This document shows, piece by piece, positions 3,078 to 41,673 of a stretch of DNA of 42,393 nucleotides. The notes beneath the pieces are model-generated. The model did not search any database and was not told where the DNA came from. It saw only the letters and a program-made list of their open reading frames with translations. The position numbers were made by a program, and so were the translations under genes. The first letter of the stretch is position 1. Each line of letters begins with the position of its first letter. This DNA is from Leptolyngbyaceae cyanobacterium (GTDB lineage Bacteria > Cyanobacteriota > Cyanobacteriia > Phormidesmidales > Phormidesmidaceae): the NCBI GenBank assembly GCA_965263355.1, contig CBDHHL010000008.1, positions 1 through 42,393 of the forward strand, written 5' to 3'.

Positions 3078-3577
3078 TAACCAACCTCCAAAACCGAAAA
3101 TTGAACCAAGCTATTGATACCATCGCTTGCTACGCCATAGCGACGACGATAGTCAGACGGCAGCGTTAAGCCTACCCGGTAGCGTGGAAAGCCGTACTCA
3201 TAGCCGTAGCTGGTCGTGAGGGTTTGAATTAGCGTTATCCCGTGCCCCGTGGGCGATGGGTCGATGTATTCAAGTTCAAAATCCAGCTCTAGCGCGCCAT
3301 CACGGCCAGCGCCATATTCGGTACTTGACCACTTTGCGATCGCGCCTAGTCTAAGAGCGTCTAGCTCTGGCATTATGGCTAGGACGGTCATTGCAAACCT
3401 ATCGACCAGGCTGGAATTAATTATCGGAGTACCCACAGCGCTAAAGCCCGCAATTTCAGCTCTACCTAAGGCTGACTCCTGATAGAGACGTTCGCCAGAT
3501 GGAAAGCAGTCGATCACAACTTCAGGGACGGGAGGAGACGCCCCAGGTATCCGGATAGTGATCTGATCGTCTGCCAT
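3077..3577 (-). CDS. Distal tail protein-like (putative)
   Basis: 166 aa immediately downstream of the tape measure; synteny only. Confidence 0.55.
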   Translation of the reverse strand: MADDQITIRIPGASPPVPEVVIDCFPSGERLYQESALGRAEIAGFSAVGTPIINSSLVDRFAMTVLAIMPELDALRLGAIAKWSSTEYGAGRDGALELDFELEYIDPSPTGHGITLIQTLTTSYGYEYGFPRYRVGLTLPSDYRRRYGVASDGINSLVQFSVLEVG

Positions 3578-6500
3578 TACAAACCTAAGTCCTTAAACTG
3601 TAATCTTTGAACATTCATTGCGGCCTGCAACGCGTCAAACTCGGTTGCTTTTGCTCCTAGGTTGATGGTCTGGTTCAACCTAGGTCTAGCCCTAGCCGTT
3701 AGTGCTGTTAACACTGCGTCTAATTTTTTCTCAATCGCCTTGGTTGACGGCACTGCTGCTGCTGTAACCTGTCGACTTGATATTAGATGCTCCCGAATCA
3801 GCGCTCTTGACTGGACTTGACTGACCACCCTAGTCCCCCTAGGGGGCAAAAGGAACTCATCCTTATGGACTTGAACAACTCCCCCCGTTGCAATGCCCCC
3901 ACCTCTAAGTGACTGACCTTGTCTAGCGGACTCAATCAGCTGCTTTACCCGTTCTGCAGATTCTTCATCAAGCCTGCGCTGTTCGTCCTTAAATGCCCGC
4001 TCAATTTCTCGCTGTTCGTCCTCAAATGCTTGCTTTAGCGCTCGTTGTTCGTCCTCAAAAGCAGCTTTCAAACCCTCTTGTTCATCCTCAAATGCCCGCT
4101 CAGCTGCTCGTTGCTCATCGTCAAATACCCGCTCAGCTTCCCGTTGCTCATCGTCAAATACCCGCTCAGCTTCACGCTTTTCTTCCTCAAAAGCGAGCGC
4201 TGCAGCATCCTGCTCATCCTCAAACGCCTGCTCAGCTTCACGCTGAGAAGCTTCGAACGCTTCTTTTTCAGCCTCTTGAGCCTGCCTGAATTCATCCTCT
4301 TTGGCCTGCAACCTATTTTCTAAGTCGACCCTGGCCTGCTCTAGCGGGGTAAGTTCAAGATCTGCATCGCTAAGGACTTGATTGCGCTCTCTCAGTACAT
4401 CGGCTTCAACCTCCCTGCGTAGCTCAGCTGCCTCCTCTTCAGCCTCTAGTCGTTCCCTGATTGCTTGGCGCTCTTCCCTGGTAGATGCTTCCGCTAGAGC
4501 AATCCTGTTATTGACTTCGGTCTCCAGTGCGTCTAACTCGGCGTTCCCCTGTGATCGCTGCTGATTTAAGCTTTCTTGGAATGATCGCTCAGCTTCCCGC
4601 TGCCGGTCGTTGAATGATTCTTGGCGAGCGTTAAGGCTATCTTGAAATGCCTGCTGGTCTGACTGTTGGGAGTCCTGAAACTGACGTTCGCTAGACTGCT
4701 GGGAGTCCTGAAACTGGCGTTCGATAGACTGCTGGGAGTCCTGGAATTGGCGTTCAATGGCCCGCTGGTTTGCCTCAAAGCTTTCTCGCTGGAGCTGTTG
4801 CTGATTATCGAAGGCATTTTGAGTATCACGCGACTGAGTCTGATTAGCCTGTTGCGCCGATCTCTGTTCATCCTCAAATGCTCTAGTCGCCGCGTCAGAC
4901 TCTCTTTGTCGAGCTTCCTCGATAGCGTCTGCTCGTTCTTTGGCAAGCTCGATCGCTGCTTCCGCCGCCGCCTTTTCCCTGGCCTCAATAACCTCTTGAG
5001 TAGAGCGAGCAACCTCAGCACGCTTATTTGAAATATCTGTTTCAATTTTCAGTATCTCACTCTGTATCTGTTCAACGGCTTCAGGATCAGTAGCTTCACG
5101 CTCTAGCTCACGAAGCTCGCCAAGTTTCTCGACGCTTAGGGCGATTCGATCATTCAGGCCATTCTCTTCAATGCTCCTGAGCCTGCTCTGTCTTTCTTCT
5201 GCCGATATCTCCTGAGCTGCCGATTGCTGTTCAACTGCGGCGACCGCTGCAGCCCCGGCGTTTTCTATTTGAGCATCGCCCTGATCAATTTCGTCATTCA
5301 ATGACTTGAGCCTATTTTTCAGGTCATCTGTTGAGTCAGATAGGGCGGTCAGGCCAGCTGCTGTATCAGTAATCCGATCCCTATACTCTTGCAGCTTCTG
5401 TATTTGTAGTTCCTGCGCTGCGGTTGCTTCCTCTGTAACTGGTACTTGACGCTCTAACGCCGCAATCGACGTATCGATCGCGGCCACAGTTTGCTCAATT
5501 TCTGCAGGGGGAACCGTAATGCCATTCTCTAAAGCCTCTGCAGTTTCGTTTGCCGCAATTCGCACGCCCTGCACACTAGCCACCAGGTCAGTGAATGCAA
5601 GTTCAGCGTTTCTGGTTGCGGTTTCGGCGACTGTATCCAAGCCAAGGGCATCTCTAACCCTGTCTAAACCACGCTGCAACACATTTATCTCGTCGTTCAG
5701 AGCCTCAACATTGCCCCTGACCTGTACTTCTAAGCTGTCCCCGTTAAGGGAGTCTAGAGCATCTTGCACATCTCTGGTTGCCTGTTCTATCTCGCGGGCT
5801 TGCTCAGTTGCGCTCAGAAACGTGTCCACTACAATTGCAACGCTGGCTGCTGCACCTGCAACCGCAGCGAAAGCGACCGCTGCCGACTGAATCGCCGCAA
5901 CCTGAGCAATTTGAGCCGCCGTGGCCTGACCAGTCGCGGCAGCGTAGAGCGACTGAGCCACGGTCGCCGCTGCCACTGCAGCAGTCTCAGCGGTAGTAGC
6001 AATTGTTTTTCTGGTCGTATTGACGATGCTTACGGCTTCTTGAACAATGCGTTGGCCGTTGGCTAGGTTGTACGCGGTAACGGCTGCTACCGCAGCCGCC
6101 AGGACTCCGGTCAATGCCGTAGTTGCAATCAGTGTCCTCTGAATTGGAGTTGGCAAGGCGTTAAAGGCCCCGACTAGTTCAATGGCCGCATCAACGACGG
6201 GACGTGCCCCTAAGTTGGCAAACTCGCCAAAAGAAACACTAGCCTTAGTTGCTTCATCACTGAGATTGCTTAGTCGACCTCCCAGGGTTTCAGATTGTAC
6301 AGCCATAGCCCCAGCGATCCCCTCAAGATCGCCCAGAGCAAAAATAGCATCGGCGATCGCCTGCGGAGTTCGGGCCACTTCCTCCGTCACACCACGGAAG
6401 GAGATCGCAACCTGGTCACCCTGAGCACTGGCATTAATTCCGAATTCTTTTAGACGTTCAAACTCGCCAGTTTGAGCATCCAAAATAGCTTCCACGATTT

Positions 6501-7035
6501 GATCCAGGTCTTTGGACTGCGAGCTAGTCAGATCGCCGAGCTGTCTTAGTTGCTCATTGGTCGGTTGGATTCCTCTGTTTTGCAGCTTCAAAAAACCATC
6601 AACGACCTGGTCAAGCTCGAATGGAGTGTTGGCCGCAAAGTCTTCTACGCGAGAGAACTCTCGCTCGGCTTGGTCCCCAAATAGATTATCGAAAATGCCC
6701 TCGAAGCTTTCGAATTGCTGAAAATCCTGTAACGCCTGACTGAACAGCCCGCCGATCCCGGCAGCGACTGCAGCAGATAGAGCCGTCGTAATTCCGGTTA
6801 ACTGCTGTCTAACCTGCTCCGATTCTTCGGCAATGGCAACCAGCGCTGCCTCTACCTGTAAAGCCTCAGACGCCGTTAAGCCATAGGCATCAGCGAGAGC
6901 CCTAGCGTTTTGCTCAGTTTGAATATTGCGTTGGTCAATCTGTTCAACCGCCGCGTCAATTCTATTGATGTCACGGACAGTCCTAGCCGTGCCCGCAGCT
7001 TCGAACCTGATCGCAATATCGAGATTATCGCTCAT
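3577..7035 (-). CDS. Tail tape measure protein
   Basis: 1152 aa, Ala/Glu/Gln-rich helical protein; N-terminal AANTPFELDQVVDGFLKL tape-measure motif; hydrophobic segments; 11-aa repeats; C-terminal GGGIATGGVVQVHKDEFLLP. Confidence 0.93.
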   Translation of the reverse strand: MSDNLDIAIRFEAAGTARTVRDINRIDAAVEQIDQRNIQTEQNARALADAYGLTASEALQVEAALVAIAEESEQVRQQLTGITTALSAAVAAGIGGLFSQALQDFQQFESFEGIFDNLFGDQAEREFSRVEDFAANTPFELDQVVDGFLKLQNRGIQPTNEQLRQLGDLTSSQSKDLDQIVEAILDAQTGEFERLKEFGINASAQGDQVAISFRGVTEEVARTPQAIADAIFALGDLEGIAGAMAVQSETLGGRLSNLSDEATKASVSFGEFANLGARPVVDAAIELVGAFNALPTPIQRTLIATTALTGVLAAAVAAVTAYNLANGQRIVQEAVSIVNTTRKTIATTAETAAVAAATVAQSLYAAATGQATAAQIAQVAAIQSAAVAFAAVAGAAASVAIVVDTFLSATEQAREIEQATRDVQDALDSLNGDSLEVQVRGNVEALNDEINVLQRGLDRVRDALGLDTVAETATRNAELAFTDLVASVQGVRIAANETAEALENGITVPPAEIEQTVAAIDTSIAALERQVPVTEEATAAQELQIQKLQEYRDRITDTAAGLTALSDSTDDLKNRLKSLNDEIDQGDAQIENAGAAAVAAVEQQSAAQEISAEERQSRLRSIEENGLNDRIALSVEKLGELRELEREATDPEAVEQIQSEILKIETDISNKRAEVARSTQEVIEAREKAAAEAAIELAKERADAIEEARQRESDAATRAFEDEQRSAQQANQTQSRDTQNAFDNQQQLQRESFEANQRAIERQFQDSQQSIERQFQDSQQSSERQFQDSQQSDQQAFQDSLNARQESFNDRQREAERSFQESLNQQRSQGNAELDALETEVNNRIALAEASTREERQAIRERLEAEEEAAELRREVEADVLRERNQVLSDADLELTPLEQARVDLENRLQAKEDEFRQAQEAEKEAFEASQREAEQAFEDEQDAAALAFEEEKREAERVFDDEQREAERVFDDEQRAAERAFEDEQEGLKAAFEDEQRALKQAFEDEQREIERAFKDEQRRLDEESAERVKQLIESARQGQSLRGGGIATGGVVQVHKDEFLLPPRGTRVVSQVQSRALIREHLISSRQVTAAAVPSTKAIEKKLDAVLTALTARARPRLNQTINLGAKATEFDALQAAMNVQRLQFKDLGL
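3970..4800 (-). repeat. 33-bp (11-aa) coding repeats in the tape measure
   Basis: SQQSIERQFQD-type and EQREAERVFDD-type units with Phe every 11 residues. Confidence 0.85.
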
Positions 7036-26289: not shown

Positions 26290-26340
26290 TCAGGGGGATC
26301 GGTATACTATCGAGATAGCGAGTGTCAATCCTTTAGTGTC

Positions 26341-29233: not shown

Positions 29234-29244
29234 GCAACAGTATT

Positions 29245-29283
29245 ATTTTGCAGGGCAGGTTGCGTCGATTTACCCTGCAAAAT
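29245..29283. repeat. Dispersed palindrome copy 3 (spacer inverted relative to copy 2)
   Basis: ATTTTGCAGGGCA-ggttgcgtcgatt-TACCCTGCAAAAT; spacer is the exact reverse complement of the copy 2 spacer. Confidence 0.92.
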
Positions 29284-29454
29284 CCCAATAAAAGGGCCAC
29301 TGGAGTCAGTTGGAGACTCAGCGACCCAAACAGTAAGTACTAACTCATATCATATAGCCTCTCAAGTAGCTCGCGATCTCTATCTTCTTTTTGCGATCTC
29401 AGCCGATGCTCGTAGGCAGTCAGAAACAAGCCAACAACACTGACAACAATCGCG

Positions 29455-29778
29455 TCACAAATCAAGTGTCGCCTGATTTTCAGTCCTTTGAGAAAGTCTG
29501 TTGATTTCATTTTTCAGTTTTCCAATTGGAATAGCGATGTAAATTGCGCCAGCTGAGACGTTACCGGATGCCCTCCACTGCTGCCAGTCCGTAGCAAGCC
29601 TCAGAAAAACTATAGTGCAATAGTCCTCTCCAAAATGATGGCCATCGACTACGAGCGGCAGTATGCCCCGTACTTCGTGAGCATTCTCTTTTAACCAAGC
29701 CAATGCTCTATCGACCTGGCCAGCCGTTACGGGGCATGGGGGGACTTGATACCAGGGGGAGGGAGTTAACCTAGACAT
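29455..29778 (-). CDS. Hypothetical protein
   Basis: 107 aa, coupled to the upstream ORF. Confidence 0.55.
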   Translation of the reverse strand: MSRLTPSPWYQVPPCPVTAGQVDRALAWLKENAHEVRGILPLVVDGHHFGEDYCTIVFLRLATDWQQWRASGNVSAGAIYIAIPIGKLKNEINRLSQRTENQATLDL

Positions 29779-30218
29779 CAGACGATCCCAGTAGAGTCGA
29801 GGACAGGAACATCACTTTGGACTTGCTTATCAAACAAGCCCAGCTGAGCAACCCCAGATCGCGAAGCGTCATAATCATTCCAGCAACGCTTAAGCAACTT
29901 TAGAGAGACACCCCACTCCTTGGCGATCTCTGGCATCCTCCAATAAAGCTGCGTACTGGGGGTCCCCTGAGTTACGCACACAGCCTTGGTCAGCTTGGCT
30001 ACTTTCAGATTGCTAAGCAGTGGGATGTCGTTTTTTATACAGTAGTCGTCAGCGCTAGCCCTTACTCCAAGAAACATCGCTTCGTTGATCTTGAGCGTCA
30101 GTTCTTGGCGGTTTTTCTGATAGCGAACGATTAGGGTTAGCCCCCCTTCATCCTTATTCACTTGAGAGGCTTTTCCAGGCATCTGTTTTGTCTCCTTTAT
30201 ACTTTGGTACTTGAGCAT
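29778..30218 (-). CDS. Hypothetical protein, possible C-terminal HTH
   Basis: MPEIAKEWGVSLKLLKRCW. Confidence 0.55.
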   Translation of the reverse strand: MLKYQSIKETKQMPGKASQVNKDEGGLTLIVRYQKNRQELTLKINEAMFLGVRASADDYCIKNDIPLLSNLKVAKLTKAVCVTQGTPSTQLYWRMPEIAKEWGVSLKLLKRCWNDYDASRSGVAQLGLFDKQVQSDVPVLDSTGIV

Positions 30219-30221
30219 GAG

Positions 30222-30458
30222 TTAACGCTCGCTGTGTGGTCTGCTGGGAGCAAATGCGAGCCCTTTCGTTAATATTAGCTTCCTTATTGCGATCCCAACA
30301 TCGATCACCTCTTGGTCACTCATAGACGCAATTATCAAATAGTCGGATTCGCCAAAATCCTCTCTGTCAAGCTTATTGAGTAGGCGCGATCGGAAGTCAG
30401 GAAGGACTCGCTGAGCTAGCGAGATAAGCGCCAAATACTGAGATAGGTCCTCATTCAT
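30222..30458 (-). CDS. Hypothetical protein
   Basis: Likely start ATG 30458 overlapping the rep stop (ATGA). Confidence 0.5.
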   Translation of the reverse strand: MNEDLSQYLALISLAQRVLPDFRSRLLNKLDREDFGESDYLIIASMSDQEVIDVGIAIRKLILTKGLAFAPSRPHSER

Positions 30459-31612
30459 GCTGCCACCCCTGCAATGCCCTTCAGCCAGTCGTGTAGCGAC
30501 TTCCATTCCAGATCACTAAGCTCGGCAATCGATCGTTCACCAAGACTCACCAAAGGGCAGCAATCGACCGCTGCACTCAGCCTTGCGTATCCCCTCGATC
30601 GGGACAATTCGGGGAGTGATCGCTTAACTTCTTCAATGCCTAGTACCTCCGTACTAGTCGCCGGAACACTTTCAACCATGGGCTGATTCAGGCTTTCTTG
30701 CCTGACTCGTTCGTGCTGTTCAGCCTGGATTCTTAGCTCTACAGACTTCTGCCACTCAGACTGAATCGTGTCAAATCGCAGCTCTGATTTAAATAAATCG
30801 AACTTATTCTTCATGCCTTTGACGTACTTTCCAGCGTCATGGGGAGTGATCACTTTCTGCTTGCTGTACGGTTCAACCGTTGGCAGATAGACCCTGATTA
30901 AATGCTCGATCAGCTGTGCATTTGGACGATCGACCGTTCCCCATGGAAAGGAATGCATTGTCAACGCAGTTGAGTCTAAGAACTCCCCTGTCACGAAGTG
31001 AGAAAAGCTAATCTCATTTTGAGAGTGTTCCTCTCTAATCTGAGTAATCTCTGGAGTAATCTCTGAAGTAATCTCTGTATAAGGTAGGTTAACTTCTTTA
31101 ACTTCTGTAAGTGAACTTTCTTCACTTACAGAAGTGGACTTTTTTAACTTACAGAAGTGACCTTTGTTAACCTCTGTAAGTGAACTTTCTTCACTTACAG
31201 TGAAAAGCTTGGCAGTAGCGGCTTCCAGCGTCTGATGATTCCTAAAGTAAAAGGTTTGCCCTGTCTTTTTGTTGTGGAAACTACAATAGAAAGCTTGAGA
31301 CCCATCGGCCCGCTCAAAGGACTGATCGCCAGCACGTCGGTAAGCGGTCAGTGACTTGTGAGCAATGCCGAGCTTAGAAAACGCCTTAGAAAATTCGTGC
31401 TTGCTAAACCCCAGCTCTTCAGTCCAGCTGTCACCGGGACTATAGGCTTCATGGCTGCACTTCTCGGTAAATTTGTAGAAACCGTCTGGATACTTGGCAA
31501 ACCAGTACTCTAGCTGCACTAGCAGGATCGTAGCCGTGACACTTCCGGCCAGCGGTCTGAGCTTGGAATAGTACGGAGTCGGGTTAGCAAACGCTGAGAG
31601 TAGGTTAATCAT
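30455..31612 (-). CDS. Replication initiator protein (N-terminal wHTH, lambda O-like organisation)
   Basis: LAGSVTATILLVQLEYW...FYKF...SWTEELGFS; central low-complexity linker coincides with DNA iterons; YTEITSEIT motif. Confidence 0.75.
   Translation of the reverse strand: MINLLSAFANPTPYYSKLRPLAGSVTATILLVQLEYWFAKYPDGFYKFTEKCSHEAYSPGDSWTEELGFSKHEFSKAFSKLGIAHKSLTAYRRAGDQSFERADGSQAFYCSFHNKKTGQTFYFRNHQTLEAATAKLFTVSEESSLTEVNKGHFCKLKKSTSVSEESSLTEVKEVNLPYTEITSEITPEITQIREEHSQNEISFSHFVTGEFLDSTALTMHSFPWGTVDRPNAQLIEHLIRVYLPTVEPYSKQKVITPHDAGKYVKGMKNKFDLFKSELRFDTIQSEWQKSVELRIQAEQHERVRQESLNQPMVESVPATSTEVLGIEEVKRSLPELSRSRGYARLSAAVDCCPLVSLGERSIAELSDLEWKSLHDWLKGIAGVAA
31043..31200. repeat. Putative replication origin inside rep
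   Basis: 3x AGTAATCTCTG at 12-bp period (31043-31077); two CTGTAAGTGAA-ctttc-TTCACTTACAG palindromes (31101-31135, 31174-31200) and a half-site. Confidence 0.75.
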
Positions 31613-31998
31613 GCCGACGCCCCCTGCTCTTCCTTAAGCATGGCTGAAAGCTTCGCCCGGTTACCGATATATCTGATGTATACTTTTCTCCCTTCTCGGT
31701 ATGCCCGCTCGTAATAATACGGTCCGTTGCGCCCCTTCATCTGAGATTCTATCCAGCTGCCAGAGTGACCGTTTACGTCGGGCTTCTTGACCTGGAATAG
31801 CTCAGTAGCCTTGTCGATATTCCTGAGCGCTACGATCGCTTCTAATCTCGATATCAAATGCTCAATCTGTCGATCGGAGAGATTTTTTGCAGCGCTGGAT
31901 ACAATTAAATCCGTATCTAAGTACGGCTCGGGAATGCTATTCCCTGGAATTGTTGCTAGACTGTGAGCGATATCACAGCCAGACGAATCATAAGTCAT
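31609..31998 (-). CDS. Hypothetical nucleic-acid-binding protein
   Basis: GPYYYERAYREGRKVYIRYIG motif; ATGA overlap with rep. Confidence 0.6.
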   Translation of the reverse strand: MTYDSSGCDIAHSLATIPGNSIPEPYLDTDLIVSSAAKNLSDRQIEHLISRLEAIVALRNIDKATELFQVKKPDVNGHSGSWIESQMKGRNGPYYYERAYREGRKVYIRYIGNRAKLSAMLKEEQGASA

Positions 31999-32034
31999 TG
32001 CTTTGGTGTGGTGTTACTGCTTGCGAAAAAACGG

Positions 32035-32068
32035 AAACGGCGACGGAATTGGGACTCCGTCGCCGTTT
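32035..32068. terminator. Bidirectional terminator/attenuator-like hairpin upstream of the rep operon
   Basis: AAACGGCGACGGA-N8-TCCGTCGCCGTTT with A-run left and T-run right. Confidence 0.7.
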
Positions 32069-32069
32069 T

Positions 32070-32258
32070 TTATTTGGATGCTTCCATTAACTTTGTTAAT
32101 GAGTTGGCTTTCTCTTTTGCGGCAGTCTCCCCGATCTGCGTATATAGATCGATCAGCTCCCTAACAGTCTCATGAAGTCCTACGGGAACCCTGAGAGGTT
32201 GTCTGTAAAGAGGGTTTGCCTTAATTACGTCCGTCAAATCCATTGGCTGTACTGGCAT
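32070..32258 (-). CDS. Small putative ribbon-helix-helix regulator
   Basis: Likely ATG 32258 just downstream of a promoter; RQPLRVPVGLHETVRELI. Confidence 0.5.
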   Translation of the reverse strand: MPVQPMDLTDVIKANPLYRQPLRVPVGLHETVRELIDLYTQIGETAAKEKANSLTKLMEASK

Positions 32259-32285
32259 AACTAAGTTACCTCGCTCGTTACGGAT

Positions 32286-32314
32286 ACTATAGCGGCATTC
32301 GCTGGGTGTGTCCA
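32286..32314 (-). promoter_or_regulatory. Leftward sigma70-type promoter
   Basis: TGGACA-N17-TATAGT on the minus strand. Confidence 0.6.
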
Positions 32315-32375
32315 GGGTGTTCGCGATTTTTTTTGCTTGCGGTCGCGATCTTTGCGTAAATATTGGAAAGCAACC

Positions 32376-32431
32376 TTGACGCATTGAAGAGACCGTTGCT
32401 AAGGTTAGAACGTAACTAAAAAAGTTACGTT
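32376..32431 (+). promoter_or_regulatory. Rightward promoter with downstream operator-like palindrome
   Basis: TTGACG-N18-TAAGGT, then AACGTAACT-aaaaa-AGTTACGTT (32409-32431). Confidence 0.5.
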
Positions 32432-32452
32432 GTTTTTTCTCAAGCATTAAGC

Positions 32453-32791
32453 ATGAATAGAGCAATGATGCCTGCATTACCCGATGCAGGCGGCTGGGAA
32501 TTGGTTTTTCTCAAGTCAATAGAAGCCCCTATGAAAAAGTCTGAAACGGTCTCTTGGGGTAGTGTTAGGCGTGTTGGGATGGGGATGGTTAGAAAGGCTT
32601 ACCTAGTGAGCGCTAAAGGCGATTTTGGTTGCTATGTCGAGGTAGACGCCAGGTGGAACCCTCAGCCTGGGAGATTTTATCGGCACAATTACGATCCTAT
32701 TGGTCACTCTCACTGCTTAAAAGATCCTGGGTTATTGACTAAAGCTCAGAAAGACAGCTTCTGGGCTAACGCGGGAGTTAACGCAGCATGA
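32453..32791 (+). CDS. Hypothetical protein
   Basis: First gene of the rightward operon; ATGA overlap with the next gene. Confidence 0.55.
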   Translation: MNRAMMPALPDAGGWELVFLKSIEAPMKKSETVSWGSVRRVGMGMVRKAYLVSAKGDFGCYVEVDARWNPQPGRFYRHNYDPIGHSHCLKDPGLLTKAQKDSFWANAGVNAA

Positions 32792-33258
32792 AGTTAGGAT
32801 TTGTTCAGTCGGCTGGCCCCATCTATATTTTTGCGAATCGCCCTAATCCAAACATCCTGTGGTATACGCTAGGCCGCGACGGCGACCGCGTACCGTGCCC
32901 TACTGACTGCTTCAGGGGATTTATTAAGAGCATTGGTTTTTTTGAGGTTGAACGGAGGGGAAAGGCAACATGGAAGTTGCATACACAACTTTCAGCCGAT
33001 GCGGAGTACATCATTGAGTCTGGCCATGATTCAAACTTCTCAAAAGGGTTATTGATGGCGGTCAGTTGCATTAGCCCCGACGAACTACGAAACTCGCCTC
33101 TCACTATCAGCGTTAGAGCTGGCAATGACGATAAGGTGCTTTTCTGCTCGGTGCACTTAGGTGGTCTTTGGATTAAGGCACAGTATGACTCCGAGACGGA
33201 CTGGCGAGCAATCGCGAAAACGGCAATAGATAACGTTAGAAGCGCTAATGGAGTGTAA
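32788..33258 (+). CDS. Hypothetical protein, possible ssDNA-binding fold
   Basis: 156 aa, beta-rich with aromatic residues; function guessed. Confidence 0.55.
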   Translation: MKLGFVQSAGPIYIFANRPNPNILWYTLGRDGDRVPCPTDCFRGFIKSIGFFEVERRGKATWKLHTQLSADAEYIIESGHDSNFSKGLLMAVSCISPDELRNSPLTISVRAGNDDKVLFCSVHLGGLWIKAQYDSETDWRAIAKTAIDNVRSANGV

Positions 33259-33260
33259 GT

Positions 33261-33470
33261 ATGCTTGGAATAAAAGAGATCATTGCTGAATACGACATTG
33301 AAGACGTATTAACTGCTGCGGCGACACTTATCAGAATGAACAATCCTTCGGATAGTCCATTAGATCAAGTCGCTCAAGATAGGGCTAAGAAACTCATTGA
33401 GATTGGTGAGGATCTTGGATCTATACGGGAGCTTAAGAATGGACTTAAGAGTTCAGAGTTGGTAGGCTAG
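33261..33470 (+). CDS. Hypothetical protein
   Basis: 69 aa with GGAG RBS, followed by a terminator. Confidence 0.6.
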   Translation: MLGIKEIIAEYDIEDVLTAAATLIRMNNPSDSPLDQVAQDRAKKLIEIGEDLGSIRELKNGLKSSELVG

Positions 33471-33496
33471 ACTCGCACACAGAACCTTGACCACAA

Positions 33497-33526
33497 GAAA
33501 AGCGATCGAAACCGATCGCTTTTTTT
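33497..33526 (+). terminator. Rho-independent terminator
   Basis: AAAAGCGATCG-aaac-CGATCGCTTTTTTT. Confidence 0.8.
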
Positions 33527-33530
33527 CTTG

Positions 33531-33578
33531 GAAAGTTTTGCAGGGTAATTTAATACCGCGTTACCCTGCAAAACTTTC
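33531..33578. repeat. Dispersed palindrome copy 4 (18-bp arms, divergent spacer)
   Basis: GAAAGTTTTGCAGGGTAA-tttaataccgcg-TTACCCTGCAAAACTTTC. Confidence 0.93.
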
Positions 33579-33902
33579 TCAGTCGTCTAGCGCTTGATTT
33601 ATGGCATCAATCGCGTCGGCCACTTCGTCTAGGGAGATTTCAGCGCCATTGAACCAGGCTGCAAATGTTTTGACGGCAGCCTTCATATTGCCAAGACGTA
33701 TCTCAAGTTTTTGTTTAACCAGCCTTTTATTCTCAGTAGCGAGAACTCTAGCTTCATACGCCAGTAATGCCTCACTTAATAATGGCCTTACGAACTGCGG
33801 CCACTCTATATGACCAGCTCGATCAGTAAGCTCGTCAATCTTCTTCCATTGCTCAGACGGCAGAGTTAGCCGCCTGGTTTCACTTTTACTACTACTGGTC
33901 AT
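33579..33902 (-). CDS. Ribbon-helix-helix-like DNA-binding protein with coiled coil
   Basis: TRRLTLPSEQWKKIDELTDRAG...WPQFVRPLLSEAL fits a beta-alpha-alpha RHH pattern. Confidence 0.6.
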   Translation of the reverse strand: MTSSSKSETRRLTLPSEQWKKIDELTDRAGHIEWPQFVRPLLSEALLAYEARVLATENKRLVKQKLEIRLGNMKAAVKTFAAWFNGAEISLDEVADAIDAINQALDD

Positions 33903-34029
33903 CTTGTGTCCTTAAGGCTTCACTTCAAGGCTATCAGATGCAGTGCGACGACTGCCAGCTGACATCCTAGGCGGCAGTGGGATGTCATTTGGGTGTTGCA
34001 ATGATAGAACAGATGAGTTATGGTTGGCT

Positions 34030-34120
34030 CATCGGTCACGATCGGTGACCGGGTCACCATCGGTCACGATCGGTCATCATCGGTCACGATCGGTCATCAT
34101 CGGTCATCATCGGTCATCAT
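34030..34120 (+). repeat. 10-bp tandem array (C/G)ATCGGTCA(C/T), about 9 units
   Basis: catcggtcac gatcggtgac cgggtcac catcggtcac gatcggtcat catcggtcac gatcggtcat catcggtcat catcggtcat. Confidence 0.92.
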
Positions 34121-34406
34121 GACTAAAACCACTGTTGTATATAGCCTTGAGGGGTTTAGAGACCAATTCAGGCAGCGGCTTAACGAGCGACTAGGGTCTA
34201 GTAGCCTATCTGCGAAATTTAGCGATAGTACGTTTTACCGCTGGAGAAAGGAGTTAAATATTCAGCCGCCTTATACGGCTGAAGACGGAACCCTTTTGAT
34301 CAAGTACGTCTGCCACCTAAGAGCTGGTTGTAGTTCCGCCAGGGCAAAGCAAAACGCCAAAAGTGAATTGTTCAAAATGAAAAACAGGAGAAAACCTAAT
34401 GACTGA
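34119..34406 (+). CDS. Small HTH-like protein
   Basis: Likely start ATG 34119 at the end of the array; FSDSTFYRWRKELNI. Confidence 0.6.
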   Translation: MTKTTVVYSLEGFRDQFRQRLNERLGSSSLSAKFSDSTFYRWRKELNIQPPYTAEDGTLLIKYVCHLRAGCSSARAKQNAKSELFKMKNRRKPND

Positions 34407-34707
34407 TTTCTTGAAAGCCGCACAGCAACTACAAGCCGTTGAGCGTTCTGTCACTGACGCTGAAATTGTCTTGACCGATGGGGCCACTGATCTTAAAGAC
34501 CGGATTCATGCAATTACTAGCGGTCGGTTTTTAATGGAGTTACTTTCAGACGTTATTGACGTTGAACCTAACCTTGTTAGTACTTCTTATCTAGAGGGTT
34601 CTGGCGGGCTTGCGCTGGAAGCTGGCTCTGGAGGCTTTGAGGACACTGAGTTTTTTGAAGACGATATCAGCGATTTTGATAAAACCAAGTCGTTGCAGGG
34701 AAAGTAA
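34399..34707 (+). CDS. Acidic hypothetical protein
   Basis: AGGAG RBS, overlaps the previous gene. Confidence 0.6.
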   Translation: MTDFLKAAQQLQAVERSVTDAEIVLTDGATDLKDRIHAITSGRFLMELLSDVIDVEPNLVSTSYLEGSGGLALEAGSGGFEDTEFFEDDISDFDKTKSLQGK

Positions 34708-34755
34708 TCTCTGGTCCTGTTCCGTGCGTTGTTTATGAGGCTTAACTATTGACCA

Positions 34756-35208
34756 ATGAAGCTAACTACAGCAAACATATTCACCGCTCTAGCGGGCTTG
34801 TATCTCCTTTCACTGATGGGCTTTGAATCGCCAGAAGTTACGCAGGTCAACGCTCGACGGACTGAACAAAGGGAAGCCTCTAGAGAGTCCAGGCGCAACC
34901 AGCGTCAAGCGCTGAGAGATTCGAAAATAGCCCTTGAGCGCTATCGTCGAGGTTGTCAGCCTGTAGTCGATAAAGACTCTGATTCCGAGCTATTTCACGG
35001 CCCAGAAACTGTATTTGTCGACTCAGTGTCTGGGAATCCGTTTCCTGCTGGAATTGAGATTTGCAATGGTCGCGGGTGGACTGCAATCACAAAAGCTGAC
35101 GGGACAGCTCGGAGTGTTGCGATCGCGAGTGCAGTTGATTCGAACAAAAACGAAGTTGACGATTTTTCAGAGGCAGTCGCTATTTTCAAGAGAAACCAAG
35201 ACTTATGA
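34756..35208 (+). CDS. Membrane-anchored/exported hypothetical protein
   Basis: N-terminal hydrophobic segment; Cys pair. Confidence 0.65.
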   Translation: MKLTTANIFTALAGLYLLSLMGFESPEVTQVNARRTEQREASRESRRNQRQALRDSKIALERYRRGCQPVVDKDSDSELFHGPETVFVDSVSGNPFPAGIEICNGRGWTAITKADGTARSVAIASAVDSNKNEVDDFSEAVAIFKRNQDL

Positions 35209-35816
35209 CAAGAAAACGAAATAATCGCAAAAACAAGTCAGAGAAAGAGGTTGACTCAATTGGACCAAGTAGGACGGAGATCTTTATTGTTCGCTCAGTG
35301 CTACTTGGCGGTCTAGGCCTAATAACTGTACTCAGCCTGCAGCCATGGCTTGGGATCAGCTCAGTTCTTGTTGATTCAATCACCGTCGTCCCGTTTTATG
35401 ACGTACTTACGACGATCCCCTATGTGTCAAACGTCGTTCAGTACTTGGATAACGTGGGAGATAGCCTGTTTTCGGGCATTGTCGGGATCACGATCGCGGC
35501 GACAATCAACTACTACCAGGTTCGCGGTGGACTGAGCGTAAGCCGCCGCGATTGGGTGCTAAGGACGCTTGCAGGCTGCATTGAGATAATTGTGTGTGTC
35601 CACCATCATGCTCCATACGATGGCGGTTTTGAGGCACTTGCGTTGGACTTTCCAAGGCTGGACTTTTACAGCTTTGACCTGGTCGCAACAGTTTTCACAA
35701 TTGCAAACGTCATCTTGTTTGAAGTTGTCTTTCTATGCGGGTTTGACTACGTGAACAGATTAGAGGGGGAACGACTCAATGTCAGAGATCGTGAGCACGA
35801 AGCAGCCGCAGTCTAA
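35205..35816 (+). CDS. Multi-TM membrane protein
   Basis: Basic N-terminus followed by 3-4 hydrophobic helices. Confidence 0.7.
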   Translation: MTRKRNNRKNKSEKEVDSIGPSRTEIFIVRSVLLGGLGLITVLSLQPWLGISSVLVDSITVVPFYDVLTTIPYVSNVVQYLDNVGDSLFSGIVGITIAATINYYQVRGGLSVSRRDWVLRTLAGCIEIIVCVHHHAPYDGGFEALALDFPRLDFYSFDLVATVFTIANVILFEVVFLCGFDYVNRLEGERLNVRDREHEAAAV

Positions 35817-36633
35817 TCTAGGGGAATGCCCGATGGTATTGGCTCGCGTTACTGATGACCCCATGCATATTGGTGTTGTTGGCGGCATTGGAGTTTTAAT
35901 GCTCCTGAGCCTACCTGGTTGGTCCCTGATTCCTGCTGGTTTAGCCCTTTACGCCGTCGCTAATGATGTCATTTGGGCGCTTACCGACGACACAGACAGT
36001 GACGAAAAACCTGCAATAGATACTGAGGCTACTGAGGTAAAAGACCCGATCGCAGCGCTTAAAGAACGAAGTCCGGATAATTGGGTTGACAACTCTGGTT
36101 TACCTGAAATGTGGAAGCCCAGAGTTGAACCAGTTGAACCAGTGAGCACTGGTTTTAAGCGAGCTGCTGACGTGGTCGCTGACAGCTCGCCAGCTGAGTT
36201 GTTAGCTCTCCTCGGTGAGCGTGCGCCTCAGTGGTTGCAGTCAGCAGCGATCGCTCAGGAGATCGCGGCTGCGGAACCTGCACTTGAACCGGAACCACCT
36301 GCTGTCAATACGCCTGAAATCCCTTTTGAACCAATGGTTCCAGGTGGTTCTGGTTCTGGTTCTGGTTCGGTTCATGGTTCTGGTTCTGGTTCGGTTCATG
36401 GTTCGGATGCCGTTCTAGCTGGGCTCATGCAAGCGGTAGCAGCTGGCCCGCGAGTCGTGCCGGTCATGGGTGTGAGGGGAAAAACCTACAATATTGTCAA
36501 AACAGCACTTCAGTTAGAAAAGTCTCAGACTTGGATAATTGAGAATATCTTTGGAGTCAAGAAAGGTGGCTCGACCAAGTACAAGTCATCAGTTAGCTAT
36601 ATTAGGTGGGTGAAAGAGAATGGCTTGGGTTAA
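35779..36633 (+). CDS. Membrane protein with long linker and C-terminal HTH-like motif
   Basis: Two N-terminal TMs; Pro/Glu and GS linker; SQTWIIENIFGVKKGGSTKY. Confidence 0.65.
   Translation: MSEIVSTKQPQSNLGECPMVLARVTDDPMHIGVVGGIGVLMLLSLPGWSLIPAGLALYAVANDVIWALTDDTDSDEKPAIDTEATEVKDPIAALKERSPDNWVDNSGLPEMWKPRVEPVEPVSTGFKRAADVVADSSPAELLALLGERAPQWLQSAAIAQEIAAAEPALEPEPPAVNTPEIPFEPMVPGGSGSGSGSVHGSGSGSVHGSDAVLAGLMQAVAAGPRVVPVMGVRGKTYNIVKTALQLEKSQTWIIENIFGVKKGGSTKYKSSVSYIRWVKENGLG
36127..36404. repeat. Polarised GAACC/GGTTC pentamer array
   Basis: GAACC at 36127, 36136, 36274, 36286, 36292, 36328; then 11 GGTTC copies in 36336-36404. Confidence 0.75.
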
Positions 36634-36895
36634 AGGCTCAATTACACTAGCGGCGGCACATCGCATTTTCCCTCAGTTTGACATTACACAGATAGTGATA
36701 GGCAATAAGAGCGTCTACAGGGCAAGCATTGCTAATCAGCTCGTCTTCAATGATTCCTTAACTAGTCTTTGTGAGGGACTAGAAAGAATGCTATTCCACT
36801 GCATCGATCCGGCTAAGTTTACCGAGTTTCTTGAGAGTCGCCCTAAGCCGGACACTCCAGACACGGTAATCAGTTTGTTGACCAGAGATCTCTGA
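36620..36895 (+). CDS. Hypothetical protein
   Basis: 91 aa, last gene of the rightward operon, convergent with gpG. Confidence 0.5.
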   Translation: MAWVKGSITLAAAHRIFPQFDITQIVIGNKSVYRASIANQLVFNDSLTSLCEGLERMLFHCIDPAKFTEFLESRPKPDTPDTVISLLTRDL

Positions 36896-37307
36896 TCACT
36901 GCGAGTAATTCTGCTCTATCCTGTGCAGTGATTCCCAAAAAACGCCGTGATGGTTGTCGACCGTCGCGGCTTCCCTTTTGGAATCTAGCCGCATAAGGAC
37001 GGTTAGAGCCAACCAATAAGTAAGTAGGCCTCGCCACATATGTAATGCCGTCCCGCAAGGCCAGCGTGTATTTCCCCACTCCTCGATCTCGACCTTCCGC
37101 AGCCTTGCGGCGTTTCCACGCAGCACTAATAGGAGCCCATCGCTGACCGCCCGGTGATGTTTCGGAGTCAAAATAACTGCGTGTCCGCAGTAGCATGTAT
37201 TCCCCAAAGTCCTCAAATGCTGGCCGCAGGTCCCCGATCGCCTCTGTCGTATTTCTAAGCGCTCGCTGAACGTCGGCAGTTGTTATCTGGATTTCAATGC
37301 TAGCCAC
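36870..37307 (-). CDS. Mu gpG-like virion morphogenesis protein
   Basis: DLRPAFEDFGE...FDSETSPGGQRWAP...VGSNRPYAA.FQ.G...PSRRFLGI. Confidence 0.9.
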   Translation of the reverse strand: MASIEIQITTADVQRALRNTTEAIGDLRPAFEDFGEYMLLRTRSYFDSETSPGGQRWAPISAAWKRRKAAEGRDRGVGKYTLALRDGITYVARPTYLLVGSNRPYAARFQKGSRDGRQPSRRFLGITAQDRAELLAVIRDLWSTN

Positions 37308-37671: not shown

Positions 37672-37680
37672 ATTGGAAAG

Positions 37681-37717
37681 TTTTGCAGGGTAAGTTGCGT
37701 TGAATTACCCTGCAAAA
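37681..37717. repeat. Dispersed palindrome copy 5, overlapping the MuF stop codon
   Basis: TTTTGCAGGGTA-agttgcgttgaat-TACCCTGCAAAA. Confidence 0.92.
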
Positions 37718-38406
37718 TTACTCGACTCCTCTGCAACTGCGATCGCAATATCAGGCTGAAGCCTCCCTAGTAATGATGCCTGCAGGTTTGAGCGTTCGCT
37801 GTCCCCCAGGGAACCTAGCTGCTGAGTCCAGCCAGGTTCCCTGGGGACTGGCAGTGGTTCACTTAGTGTTAGCCCTAGGCGTTCCATGTCCCGTTGAGAA
37901 AGGCTGAAGTACACGCAACGGCAGCCGTACCCGTGGGGCAGCCGAGTTGGTCTCTCATCAGTTCGGTAGACCTTGCCATCGTTTGCCAAATGAGTAGGCC
38001 TAGGGTCGTCGCTGCCCCCATGTCGCCACATCACGAATGGTCGACGAGATTTTACTCGTTGGATCTGCTCCTCCCGACCATTCCCGTAAGCTGAGCGGAG
38101 ATTAGTTTCCCAGATCAAGTTTGATCGCCAGTCGCGATTACCGGTGTAGCTCCAACCACGCTTAGCAACAATCTGGTCAAAATTCGCCTGGAATTCTTTT
38201 AAAGTAATTCCCTGCTCGATCGCTGCGTCCACTTCCTTTCTAATGTCGCTCAGTAGTGCCCCCTTAGCCCCAGCGACCATAAACACGGCCAGCTGTTCAG
38301 CCCCCGTAATGTCTCGCCATGAGTCCGTATCAATGTTCAGTTTGCTTGAGAAGAATTGAATTGCTTCGGCAAAAGGGAGTTGAGACCAACGAAAAATTGT
38401 GCGCAT
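37705..38406 (-). CDS. MuF/gp30 head morphogenesis protein (short form)
   Basis: LPFAEAIQFF..K...FMVAG...WETNLRSAY..GR...PRPTH...DG...PHGYGCRC. Confidence 0.93.
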   Translation of the reverse strand: MRTIFRWSQLPFAEAIQFFSSKLNIDTDSWRDITGAEQLAVFMVAGAKGALLSDIRKEVDAAIEQGITLKEFQANFDQIVAKRGWSYTGNRDWRSNLIWETNLRSAYGNGREEQIQRVKSRRPFVMWRHGGSDDPRPTHLANDGKVYRTDERPTRLPHGYGCRCVYFSLSQRDMERLGLTLSEPLPVPREPGWTQQLGSLGDSERSNLQASLLGRLQPDIAIAVAEESSNFAG

Positions 38407-38407
38407 T

Positions 38408-38560
38408 TTAATTACCTATTTCATCAAGCGCATCTTGCACCTCTCTGGTCGCATCCCTCGTGTTACTAGCACCTCCGTCGACGCTAGTGACCGTATGGAT
38501 CGCTAGCGCAATGGCGACCGCTGCTATTCCTGCTAGGGAGACGTTAATCAGTGTTTTCAT
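38408..38560 (-). CDS. 50-aa membrane peptide homologous to a tape-measure segment (absent from the ORF track)
   Basis: MKTLINVSLAGIAAVAIALAIHTVTSVDGGASNTRDATREVQDALDEIGN; fills the gap between neighbours; GAGGA upstream. Confidence 0.75.
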   Translation of the reverse strand: MKTLINVSLAGIAAVAIALAIHTVTSVDGGASNTRDATREVQDALDEIGN

Positions 38561-39053
38561 TGGGTTCCTCTAGATCGTCAATAGTTCCGTCTTCAGATAA
38601 ATCTTCCATTGCCCCAGCAATAGACGTTGCAACGATCGCATCACTGGCCAAACGGCGTAGGCTTTCACCATCAAGATTTGGATACAGATTCAGCAGGCCT
38701 TCGGCGAATTCGGCCAAGTCACTTACCCCATCAAGGCTATCCCTGATCTGGCCAACCCATCCGTCAATCAATGTTCCGGCTTGATTGCGGAATTGTTCTG
38801 ACCAGATAGCGACGGTGTCTGCTTCGGCAAACTCTGACTCAGTGTCAACGGAGTCGGGGTTAACCAGCTTGAATGACACTTGTGAGTCTGTGTACTGAAA
38901 AGCGATTACACGGTTTTCATCGGTTGCGATCGCAACTATCGCCCCATCGTCCTCGACCCTACCAGACTGAACTGAATCGACACCGTCTGTGTAAGTTTCA
39001 TTGATAAGATCGATTAATGTTGGATATTGTTCTTTCGGGATTTCAGTAGGCAT
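38544..39053 (-). CDS. Acidic protein whose C-half resembles the C-terminus of Mu-type portals
   Basis: EFAEAD...LIDGWVGQIRDSLDGVSDLAEFAEGLLNLYPNLD...LASDAIVATSIAG. Confidence 0.65.
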   Translation of the reverse strand: MPTEIPKEQYPTLIDLINETYTDGVDSVQSGRVEDDGAIVAIATDENRVIAFQYTDSQVSFKLVNPDSVDTESEFAEADTVAIWSEQFRNQAGTLIDGWVGQIRDSLDGVSDLAEFAEGLLNLYPNLDGESLRRLASDAIVATSIAGAMEDLSEDGTIDDLEEPNENTD

Positions 39054-39079: not shown

Positions 39080-39298
39080 TTACGCTTCTGAGCTTTCCTT
39101 GAGCTTGACTCCTCTTGCCCCCAGAGAAACCGCGTAGCTCTCCTCCAACGACAGCCCTCCCTCCGCCTGGACTAGGCGAAGTATCTTATCAGCTAAGTCC
39201 AGTAGGCGCGCTTTCCTGCCGTCGTCTTCTGGTAGTTTTTTAGCTGTCCCTACAATGCCATGACGCAACTGCATCCTTCTTAGATTAATCTCAGTCAT
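39080..39298 (-). CDS. Small protein coupled to the portal-kinase gene
   Basis: 72 aa, ATGA overlap with the portal stop. Confidence 0.6.
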   Translation of the reverse strand: MTEINLRRMQLRHGIVGTAKKLPEDDGRKARLLDLADKILRLVQAEGGLSLEESYAVSLGARGVKLKESSEA

Positions 39299-41673
39299 CT
39301 GTTGAACAATTCATTAAAGGGATCATCATCGTCGTCAAACAAGTCGTCGTAGTCACTTAGGTCAAGTCCGCCACTCGTCGGTATAAGACCACCTGTCGTT
39401 GTAATTGGCAGAGTACTCAATGTCGAGTTGACCTCCGTCCATAGCTGGCGTTCAGTCTCTTTGGCTTCCTCTTGCGTCATCCTTGGGATATTCATCCTGG
39501 CATATTTATTGATGACCGGGTCTAGAGCGTCTTTTTCTGGCATTCCTCGCTCAATAAACTGGCCATTGGTCAGGACTTGAATGGATTCGGTTAGCTGATT
39601 TTTTGCTGTAATCTCCCCTACCTCGGCGTAGCCATAGTCAATTATCCTGACATCTCCAGCACTATTGATCATCACGTTTCCGTTGTGCATATCGCCATGA
39701 GTAACATTGGCCTCATGCATAGCTTGAACCTGAGCGAAAGTATTCGTGATTGTCGTTCGTTGTAACTCAGGATCGATAAAGACGTTTGAGTAGTCTTCAT
39801 ATCCGTCTAGATACTCCATTGCCATCTTGTCAACGCCCCTTTCATTGGATGACGTGGCGATAATCCTTGGACCAACACCAGCGTCACTCATTAGTTGCGA
39901 TGCTGAGATCTCGGCTTCCCCCATTTCAGCCCCAGGCACCATGTATTTAATTACAGCGCCGTCGCCTAAATAGACTTTCCCTTGAGCGCCCTGTCCAATA
40001 GGTGAACCCAACTCCGTCTCATCCTTGAACTCAAAGGCATCGCTAGGCTGCCCAGTCGTGGCCTGTGCCCCTACTGCCGCCCTTAGTTCCTCTGCCCGCC
40101 TTCGCTGTGCCTCGCTGGGGGTTTTTCTGCAGATTTTTAGAGCGCTAATGCAGGTGTTGCCACAGGAAACGCCCTTGACACAATTACGCTTTTTTCCGGC
40201 GAACTCTACCTCCGAAAATAGCCCCGAAACCTCGTCTAATTCCGGCAAGCTTTCCGGCGCGATCGGCTCAGGTTCTGGCTCATCTGTAACAGTCGGCTCT
40301 TCAATCGGCTCTTCAATAAGTCGTTCGGCTTGATCCTCGCTAACAGTCGGGACAGCCAGTACGACCAACTCGCGAGCGGCTTTAGTCGAGATAATGCCCT
40401 GAGATACTTGAGTGACAATGTCGACAATTGCCTGCACTTGCGCCCCGTTTAATCCGGTGGCTTCCCCGCTTTCAGGGGGAGCAAATCCATCGCCGTAAGT
40501 TGACTCAATGTATGCCTGAGTTGGGGGATAGCCCATTTCAGTAAGTACCCTATCCCGTTCAGACGTATCTTTAAGGTTGGCTGGTGGGCTTAGATCGCGG
40601 CTTATTTTTGGATAAGCTGCCCCAGGATAGTTCCAGTCGGTCAGCCACCTTGCCGGTCCTTTATTGAATGATTCGGAGATAGCGTCAGACAATGACTGAG
40701 CGATAGCTAGCTCAACATTTTCGTGAACTTCAGCCTGGGAACGACTTGAGCCGTCGTCTGTGGTCATCGTCTGACCTAAGATAACTTTTGATATTGCAGC
40801 GTTTTTATGGTCAATGTAGCTTTCGTAGCTAGCAGCTCCACTGCCGACCGCTTGGAGGAATTCAGCAGTCATCCAATGAGGGATCGCGATCCCGTCGTAA
40901 TCGCCTAGGTCAGCTGCGATCTGTGCCGACAAGTCCCGCTGTTCTGGCGTAGCTCCTTCCGGATAGCGAGTTAAACCCGTTGGCCTACCATACTTTTCTA
41001 AATATTTTGACCAGTACTTATCAGCAGCGCGTTTGAAGAATACTAGCCAGTACAAAAGCGATGCTGTGCCCTGGCCGTATGGATTGTCGTCGTCATGGCC
41101 ACCAAGATTCAAATACCAAAACTTTCTATCAGGCAGCTTGATTCCGTTGTAAGCATTTCCCCACGTCAGCAACCTTGGCTCTAGCTGGGGAGTGAACTTG
41201 AACCGTCTTCGATTGCGAACTTTGATAATGTCAATCTCGACGCGATCGCTCTCTCCACGCTTCCACATGAATTCCGCAAAACTGAAACCAAAAAGATCGC
41301 CGTACGCCATCTTTTCCGTAACTGTTCCAAATGCGTTTTTTTCTAGCTGACTCCGCAGTGACTTAGCTGCTTTCTGGTCAATCTTCCTCTCTCCACCTGG
41401 CTGGACACTTAACGGCGCTGCAGTGATCTTGTGGATTAATTGGTTATAGCTTGCTGCAACTTGATCATCCCTAGCGATAACCTCGAAAATCCTAAGGTTT
41501 TGGTGCCCTCGGTTGAGGATCGAGTATTCCTCTGCCCGGTTGAGCACAGGATCATTGAAGGGCAGTAACCCGGTCGTTGAGATATAGCCGCGAGTAATAT
41601 CTCTCGTCCCGCCAGACGGGGCATACTCACCACGGGGAGCACCTTTTTTTTGCATTACCCTAACTTCACTCAT
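39295..41673 (-). CDS. Mu gp29/DUF935 portal protein fused to a Cys4 motif and a protein-kinase-like domain
   Basis: Portal: NPYGQG...LYWLVFFKR...YLEKYGRP...ISKVILGQTMTT..GSSRSQAEVH; kinase: IGQGAQGKVY, VIK, MEYLDG, HGDMHNGN, IIDYG. Confidence 0.92.
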   Translation of the reverse strand: MSEVRVMQKKGAPRGEYAPSGGTRDITRGYISTTGLLPFNDPVLNRAEEYSILNRGHQNLRIFEVIARDDQVAASYNQLIHKITAAPLSVQPGGERKIDQKAAKSLRSQLEKNAFGTVTEKMAYGDLFGFSFAEFMWKRGESDRVEIDIIKVRNRRRFKFTPQLEPRLLTWGNAYNGIKLPDRKFWYLNLGGHDDDNPYGQGTASLLYWLVFFKRAADKYWSKYLEKYGRPTGLTRYPEGATPEQRDLSAQIAADLGDYDGIAIPHWMTAEFLQAVGSGAASYESYIDHKNAAISKVILGQTMTTDDGSSRSQAEVHENVELAIAQSLSDAISESFNKGPARWLTDWNYPGAAYPKISRDLSPPANLKDTSERDRVLTEMGYPPTQAYIESTYGDGFAPPESGEATGLNGAQVQAIVDIVTQVSQGIISTKAARELVVLAVPTVSEDQAERLIEEPIEEPTVTDEPEPEPIAPESLPELDEVSGLFSEVEFAGKKRNCVKGVSCGNTCISALKICRKTPSEAQRRRAEELRAAVGAQATTGQPSDAFEFKDETELGSPIGQGAQGKVYLGDGAVIKYMVPGAEMGEAEISASQLMSDAGVGPRIIATSSNERGVDKMAMEYLDGYEDYSNVFIDPELQRTTITNTFAQVQAMHEANVTHGDMHNGNVMINSAGDVRIIDYGYAEVGEITAKNQLTESIQVLTNGQFIERGMPEKDALDPVINKYARMNIPRMTQEEAKETERQLWTEVNSTLSTLPITTTGGLIPTSGGLDLSDYDDLFDDDDDPFNELFNR

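Follow-up and report, generated by a model that had tools for sequence, protein, structure and literature searches.

The sections of the published reports drawn on here describe several small proteins that stop phages at the envelope and converge on the tape measure protein (TMP). HK97 gp15 is a moron product that blocks entry at the inner membrane in a manner dependent on the tail region (PMC3594210). T4 Imm, a small inner-membrane protein, binds the TMP and displaces a TMP membrane helix from a helical bundle, the TMP membrane helices being the ones that build the entry conduit (10.64898/2026.03.06.709160). Mycobacteriophage NBJ gp45 and the lactococcal and streptococcal Ltp lipoproteins are prophage-encoded, exported and linked to the TMP in their exclusion; escape from gp45 maps to the TMP (10.64898/2025.12.12.693979). 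Tab is also directed at the TMP but blocks tail assembly rather than entry (PMC10884400), and prophage FimU mimics defend by resembling a part of the envelope, in that case a host pilus protein (PMC12952977). As far as checked, gp15, Imm, Ltp and gp45 are unrelated in sequence to their target: the consulted part of the Imm report mentions no homology to the TMP (10.64898/2026.03.06.709160), and a paralogy between gp15 and its own TMP is not supported (score 35, with 200 of 1000 shuffles as good). What, then, of a small membrane protein that is itself a piece of a TMP? In the full-text literature searched, mostly outside subscription journals, no paper describes an exclusion protein, or a decoy, that arose from part of a TMP. 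The locus presented here encodes a candidate.

The peptide gene and its parent segment

The window (the whole stretch of DNA analysed, a contig of 42,393 bases) carries Mu-type portal, gpF, gpG, gp36, gp37, protease, capsid and terminase genes and encodes a 1152-aa TMP. The octamer GCGATCGC, presumably the cyanobacterial HIP1 site, occurs in 17 copies against 0.6 expected, and those TMP relatives that have named records come from cyanobacterial MAGs; the phage host is therefore most likely a cyanobacterium. The features that matter for the argument are:

38408..38560, minus strand: 50-aa peptide gene, stand-alone paralogue of TMP residues ~391-430 (sequence, alignment, profile)
38423..38452, minus strand: 10-codon motif ATREVQDALD, peptide residues 37-46 (alignment to TMP)
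38565..38570, minus strand: Shine-Dalgarno-like GAGGAA, ending 4 nt before the ATG (read directly from the sequence)
37705..38406, minus strand: Mu gpF-like head morphogenesis gene, directly 3' of the peptide gene (PF04233, phrog_220)
38544..39053, minus strand: 169-aa ORF upstream of the peptide gene, a detached portal C-terminal domain (phrog_113, E 2e-4; fused to the portal in relatives)
39295..41673, minus strand: Mu-type portal with a kinase-like C-terminal extension, at the head of the gene block that contains the peptide gene (PF06074, E 5e-85; Pkinase, E 7e-9)
3577..7035, minus strand: TMP, 1152 aa, hydrophobic helices at ~301-320 and ~385-403 (phrog_5062, E 1.3e-34; hydropathy)
5746..5865, minus strand: TMP residues 391-430, the second hydrophobic helix and the following amphipathic helix, source segment of the peptide (alignment, profile)

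The peptide has a Lys-bearing N-terminus, a hydrophobic helix (residues ~3-21) and an acidic amphipathic helix (residues 22-48). An A-x-A site at residues 18-20 (A18-L19-A20) makes it possible that the window peptide is cleaved there and acts as a free periplasmic helix. Its gene overlaps the upstream 169-aa ORF by 17 nt, with GAGGAA lying inside the 3' end of that ORF, and stops 1 nt before the gpF ATG; judged by this layout, the window copy is translationally coupled inside the head gene block. Its GC content (0.50) is similar to that of the neighbouring genes, and a weak scan of its strand found no sigma-70-type promoter between 37300 and 39500. The peptide sequence recurs without variants in contigs from three sequencing runs, which represent at most two samples of one study and possibly the source itself. 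The initial annotation called the peptide hidden; its gene had in fact already been called in the NCBI/ENA protein collection, where it forms a cluster by itself. The peptide falls under no family of Pfam, PHROGs, NCBIfam or PADLOC, and single-sequence searches of viral contigs, a 5.8-billion set, 1.84-billion representatives, phage GenBank and the ESM Atlas returned no homologue; two repeat-rich proteins from the 1.84-billion representatives were rejected. An Rz-like i-spanin identity was likewise rejected for this peptide: the endolysin gene (9646-10650) is 28 kb away and the peptide has no PHROG match.

The resemblance to the TMP was first seen as a motif, ATREVQDALD against ATRDVQDALD at TMP residues 419-428 (nt 5752-5781), and as an alignment without gaps. 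Both are borne out, with the ORF, its strand and the codons as quoted: peptide residue i corresponds to TMP residue i+382 (TMP 383-432), 15 of the 50 residues are identical, nine of them within the motif, and the hydrophobic helices are in register (KD19 2.27 and 2.37). The best ungapped segment scores 71 against a shuffled mean of 33-35, a level reached in 0 of 3000 shuffles in each of three schemes; pairwise BLASTP, taken alone, is weak (E 0.002). The motif by itself is a modest clue. A 9/10 match to a shuffled TMP arose in 1, 1 and 0 cases per 3000, and any such match between two of the 53 ORFs in 4/400 and 3/400 shuffled proteomes (~0.01), a rate at which, with no other evidence, such matches would turn up often if many stretches of DNA were scanned. 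The further claim that differences at third codon positions imply selection on the protein is circular, the stretch having been picked for its amino-acid identity: five of the ten motif codons are identical, and outside the motif 43 of 120 bases agree.

The decisive test of homology is a profile that leaves out the window's own TMP. Ten TMP relatives were found through region 280-520 and then aligned; among 1218 six-frame segments, the profile of these foreign TMPs scores the peptide at 36 bits (E 2.9e-10), with the next best segment at 7 bits. The peptide is its only other strong match, and 0 of 5000 shuffles did as well in each of three schemes. A full-length TMP profile puts the peptide at the same place (E 1.9e-7). 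Conversely, when the profile is built from three peptides and no TMP, it picks out this TMP segment in G105 (E 6.7e-6), G003, G006:C4 and G170. Over 40 residues, the peptide shares 11-19 identities with nine of the foreign TMPs, 6 with the most distant and 15 with its own, and it matches TMP-family residues at places where its own TMP has drifted; with foreign TMPs (up to 19/40) resembling it as much as its own does, it is not a fresh duplication. Taken together, the sequence comparisons show that the peptide gene arose from a TMP gene in this group and is old enough to have lost its likeness at the DNA level. The part that was copied includes the most changeable stretch of the TMP: within 281-560, no 20-mer is less conserved than residues 421-440 (0.25). 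A predicted model of TMP 270-600 (pLDDT 58, membrane part <50) places a more confident three-helix part, ~470-600, behind the low-confidence membrane part, a layout loosely like that of the T4 Imm target; a fold search with this model found no match.

Relatives in other cyanobacterial prophages

The initial annotation proposed looking in relatives for co-variation between peptide and TMP, and a small family did emerge. Four more stand-alone TMP-segment genes are present in related cyanobacterial prophages, two clear (one of them frameshifted) and two weaker:

G006:C4, 55 aa: on the minus strand, with 33 kb between it and its TMP; the first gene within a putative Mu-type left end
L061: between a chaperone-like gene and the TMP gene, co-oriented with the latter; frameshifted in a T run on a low-coverage contig
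G006:C9, 58 aa: antisense, 2 kb before its TMP, in the tail region
G105:C1, 59 aa: also antisense and likewise in the tail region; the three-peptide profile gives it E 2.5e-12

Each member thus sits at a different site, that of the window in the head block, and some are antisense; the antisense copies need a promoter of their own, and a weak scan upstream of the other four members found none. The putative Mu end next to the G006:C4 member consists of a repeat word at 11.84 and 11.91 kb with an inverted near-copy at 54.6 kb (weak E). The L061 chaperone-like gene owes its label to position and is homologous to window 7025-7612; an inverted repeat at L061:7081-7115, between it and the peptide gene, is a possible operator or terminator. 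The three intact members outside the window are annotated as hypothetical proteins. All the intact members have a common start, carry a Lys ahead of the helix and end once the acidic helix is complete, yet their sequences agree at just 7-20 of 48 positions (15-42%), a combination that fits retention as genes. Hydropathy alone gives each of the four intact members one N-terminal membrane helix (KD19 maxima 1.8-2.4).

How firmly do the individual members belong? On a profile made from TMPs only, the window peptide scores 39 bits, L061 24-26, C4 21-24, and C9 and G105 8-14; over 15,837 frames the corresponding E values are 5e-10, 2e-5, 2.5e-4, 0.06 and 1.6. The match between peptide and TMP is significant in both directions and in register, clearly for the window, C4 and L061, marginally for C9 and G105. 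Because unrelated host membrane proteins reach 11-16 bits on the same profile at genome scale, membership of C9 and G105 rests on their mutual likeness (20 of 48 positions), their place and the three-peptide profile. Could some of these be generic small membrane proteins, an Rz- or FtsL-like anchor followed by a coiled coil, that came to resemble a TMP by convergence? Weak Rz-like (E 0.02-0.2) and FtsL (E 0.03) matches of C4, C9 and G105 point that way, as do the low TMP-profile scores of the last two, and the idea is plausible for the C9/G105 pair only; the scores of the window, L061 and C4 members speak against it, and among 84 short membrane ORFs of the examined loci the top three on the TMP-only profile are family members, with the next at 4.6. 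Convergence is highly improbable overall, and for the window gene its TMP-profile score and lack of any Rz match rule it out.

Members were found in 5 of the 13 contigs that carry this TMP segment and in 4 of the 9 such contigs with at least 26 kb of sequence; for G001, G002, G003:C42, G170:C158 and G678:C7, where none was seen, the sequences are incomplete. No clear member appeared outside TMP-bearing contigs in 1316 genome-searches, a figure that includes overlaps and two 401-genome samples in which at most 16 candidates were scored in many genomes. Weak matches rejected as members comprise 124-aa ribosomal-protein-like frames, efflux-pump-like frames in G328, G232 and G652, and host membrane proteins (L093, L098 and others). 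Pattern scans with the peptide alignments gave nothing or false positives (L084, L085). A 62-aa membrane ORF at L066:1465-1653 (G109:C795; E 0.004) lies beside phage-like genes and is like the G105 peptide (14 of 48 positions); being doubtful, it was left out of the family count, and no TMP of this type was found in that genome.

Are these genes at all? They might be recombination relics, TMP gene fragments dropped at different places and devoid of function. Every family sequence is a cluster of one; a profile search of 27-97-aa proteins recovered the query alone among 4334 candidates, a search that was insensitive here, since the C4, C9 and G105 proteins are in that collection and were missed; one copy is frameshifted; and in a tree the peptides scatter beside their own TMP lineages. 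Chance debris would nevertheless have to yield the same ~40-residue piece every time, each with a new start, a charged N-terminus and a stop, and in frames that stay open at ~30-45% protein identity to the nearest TMP with little DNA likeness; C9 and G105, moreover, retain their 20 shared positions and an anchor more hydrophobic than that of the TMP. We regard the relic explanation as doubtful, and the TMP mini-paralogues as a real, apparently undescribed family.

What the peptide may do

The peptide was proposed to mimic the TMP membrane segment. That reading fits, because the homology holds by profile in both directions and a small family tends to follow its own TMPs; the part that fails is any special closeness, the window peptide being no nearer its own TMP over the whole length than several foreign TMPs. 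The leading reading, which we judge about as probable as not on sequence evidence, is that the peptide is a superinfection-exclusion protein, a TMP self-mimic at the inner membrane. A piece of the tape measure gene would have been domesticated, and its small product, lodged in the inner membrane, would keep related phages from injecting their DNA. By the positive-inside rule, the peptide would insert N-in/C-out and expose its acidic helix to the periplasm. The TMP's second membrane helix, as the second member of a two-helix hairpin, would be oriented likewise during ejection. The peptide could then substitute for that helix while the TMP conduit assembles, so that injection stalls; alternatively, it could occupy the host partner that this TMP helix binds, with the same outcome. 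The variable helix after the membrane anchor would determine which TMPs are blocked. If so, the peptide would act like gp15 and Imm, by analogy. HK97 gp15 (62 aa) has the same build, an N-terminal hydrophobic helix followed by a soluble helix, and the L061 copy occupies the position of HK97 gene 15, between the tail chaperone and TMP genes (PMC3594210). The family is nonetheless no branch of gp15 (at most 3.1 bits on three profiles), and gp15 exclusion is demonstrated, whereas that of the peptides is proposed. As described in the consulted sections, T4 Imm is a four-helix, 83-aa protein of a lytic myovirus, unlike the one-helix peptide (10.64898/2026.03.06.709160); gp45 and Ltp are a secreted beta-barrel-like domain or a lipoprotein, whereas the peptide is a TMP fragment (10.64898/2025.12.12.693979); and the FimU mimics copy a host protein, whereas the peptide copies the phage's own TMP (PMC12952977).

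Exclusion is favoured by the homology to TMP ~391-430, by the confinement of a small family to prophages with this TMP type, by its variable, moron-like positions and by the Imm precedent for the TMP as a target. As for moron traits, the family is patchy and mobile and showed no promoter in the weak scan, and the window copy has a GC content like that of its neighbours. With the window copy coupled in a late head block and no sigma-70-type promoter found, expression in the lysogen is not evident. Exclusion is weakened further by the 8 of 13 TMP-bearing contigs (5 of the 9 long ones) that have no member, by the frameshift in one of five copies, by profile scores of C9 and G105 at the level of host proteins, and by the prospect that a dominant-negative copy, if produced late, might interfere with tail assembly in the very phage that encodes it.

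Would such a protein follow its own TMP? In the exclusion reading it should, since the variable helix sets which TMPs are blocked. The post-membrane helix of each peptide was scored against 17 TMP segments. Among the five peptide-TMP pairs, the own TMP ranks 4 for the window, 3 for C4, 14 for C9, 1 for G105 and 2 for L061. Compared with random pairing this gives p 0.014, or 0.018 when the window pair is left out, and permutations did as well in 3/120 cases within the five pairs and 2/24 within the four non-window pairs. The three subsections of the segment that were tried give p 0.012-0.014 (0.018-0.045 without the window pair), and both the handful of pairs and the choice among three subsections weaken the exclusion reading. 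The signal can be seen in single residues: C4 and its TMP have a proline in common, and the L061 pair has ADELR. Against whole own TMPs, none of 600 shuffles was as good for the window, C4 and L061, 16 were for G105 and 546 for C9; the C9 mismatch also counts against exclusion. The proposed co-variation is thus present as a modest tendency of the post-membrane helix to track its own TMP, with C9 as the exception. In a tree of 35 columns and 22 rows, C4, L061 and the C9/G105 pair lie beside the C4, L061-group and G105 TMPs (bootstrap 72-75) and the window peptide does not lie beside its own; an AU test (0.25) does not reject a single origin. These data suit co-evolution, gene conversion and repeated birth alike, and repeated origin from the own TMP would give the same signal without any function. 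Tentatively, and with less confidence than in exclusion itself, one may suppose that Mu-like cyanobacterial prophages have repeatedly cut the second membrane helix from their own TMP, yielding a self-mimic by which kin phages have their entry channel poisoned; its specificity would come from the short variable helix, which tracks their own TMP. The fusion-inhibitor peptides of enveloped viruses offer an analogy for exclusion by viral self-mimicry.

Two other functions deserve attention. As a decoy, the peptide would titrate whatever host membrane sensor or defence protein detects the TMP segment, at entry or during late expression, and so shield the phage. The TMP is a known target of host and prophage defences, as in the consulted accounts of SNIPE (PMC13190303) and Tab (PMC10884400), the copied helix varies more than any other part of this TMP region, and in the window transcription together with late genes would suit protection while tails are being made. 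A decoy cannot, however, be made before the first entry; antisense and end-of-prophage positions better fit expression in the lysogen, and this analysis identified no sensor of the TMP segment, so this use is unlikely. As an accessory factor, the peptide would be a minor ejection protein or a membrane tether that aids its own TMP conduit or tail assembly. The window gene is coupled to gpF, whose phrog_220 match is labelled 'minor head protein and DNA pilot', the L061 copy adjoins the TMP gene in the same orientation, and tracking of the own TMP would be expected. Structural genes are not typically missing, broken or antisense, whereas here 5 of the 9 long relatives have no member, one copy is broken, two run antisense and one lies outside the late operon; an accessory role is therefore quite improbable.

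Should the peptide be an exclusion protein, it would naturally mark which TMP segment forms the conduit through the inner membrane. For the question of how siphophage TMPs pass that membrane, the relevant segment is indicated by a 50-aa natural copy of a single TMP helix pair; the peptide is also a minimal, cheap reagent for testing TMP oligomerisation in the membrane. Exclusion would further reveal a simple route from phage structural genes to new defence genes, and short TMP paralogues of other phage groups may sit in annotation as hypothetical proteins.

Other features of the window

The head genes of the window are split (25027-37307): portal, gpF and gpG lie on the minus strand, ~10 kb of early-type genes and both terminase genes on the plus strand, and protease and capsid on the minus strand, whereas terminase, portal, gpF and gpG are contiguous in relatives. 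A ~45-nt palindrome with conserved arms and a variable loop occurs in five intergenic copies (10741-10787, 26243-26289, 29246-29283, 33531-33577 and 37676-37722), the last four at or near the seams of the split blocks; similar copies are found on other contigs from the same sequencing runs, and the element is a candidate REP-like element or two-way terminator.

The portal C-terminus carries a Cys-rich motif and a kinase-like domain (residues 557-687), with a kinase homologue at L033:7877-8266. The usual C-terminal helical domain of the portal, fused to it in L001, L002, G006:C4 and G170, is here the separate 169-aa ORF (38544-39053), behind a 72-aa ORF (39080-39298); it looks like a cassette of cargo and small partner was inserted into the portal gene.

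Among the structural genes there are also genes for a PAS-domain protein (13577-14353) and for a 903-aa protein with an acetylesterase domain (17448-20159). A class 3 lipase gene (8847-9716) lies between the endolysin and gp37-like tail genes, and a helix-hairpin-helix protein gene (23191-23514) directly follows the capsid gene, as it does in relatives. A 128-aa ORF begins with tandem 10-nt repeats (34029-34121), and a replication-initiator-like gene contains 23-nt iteron-like repeats (31088-31200).
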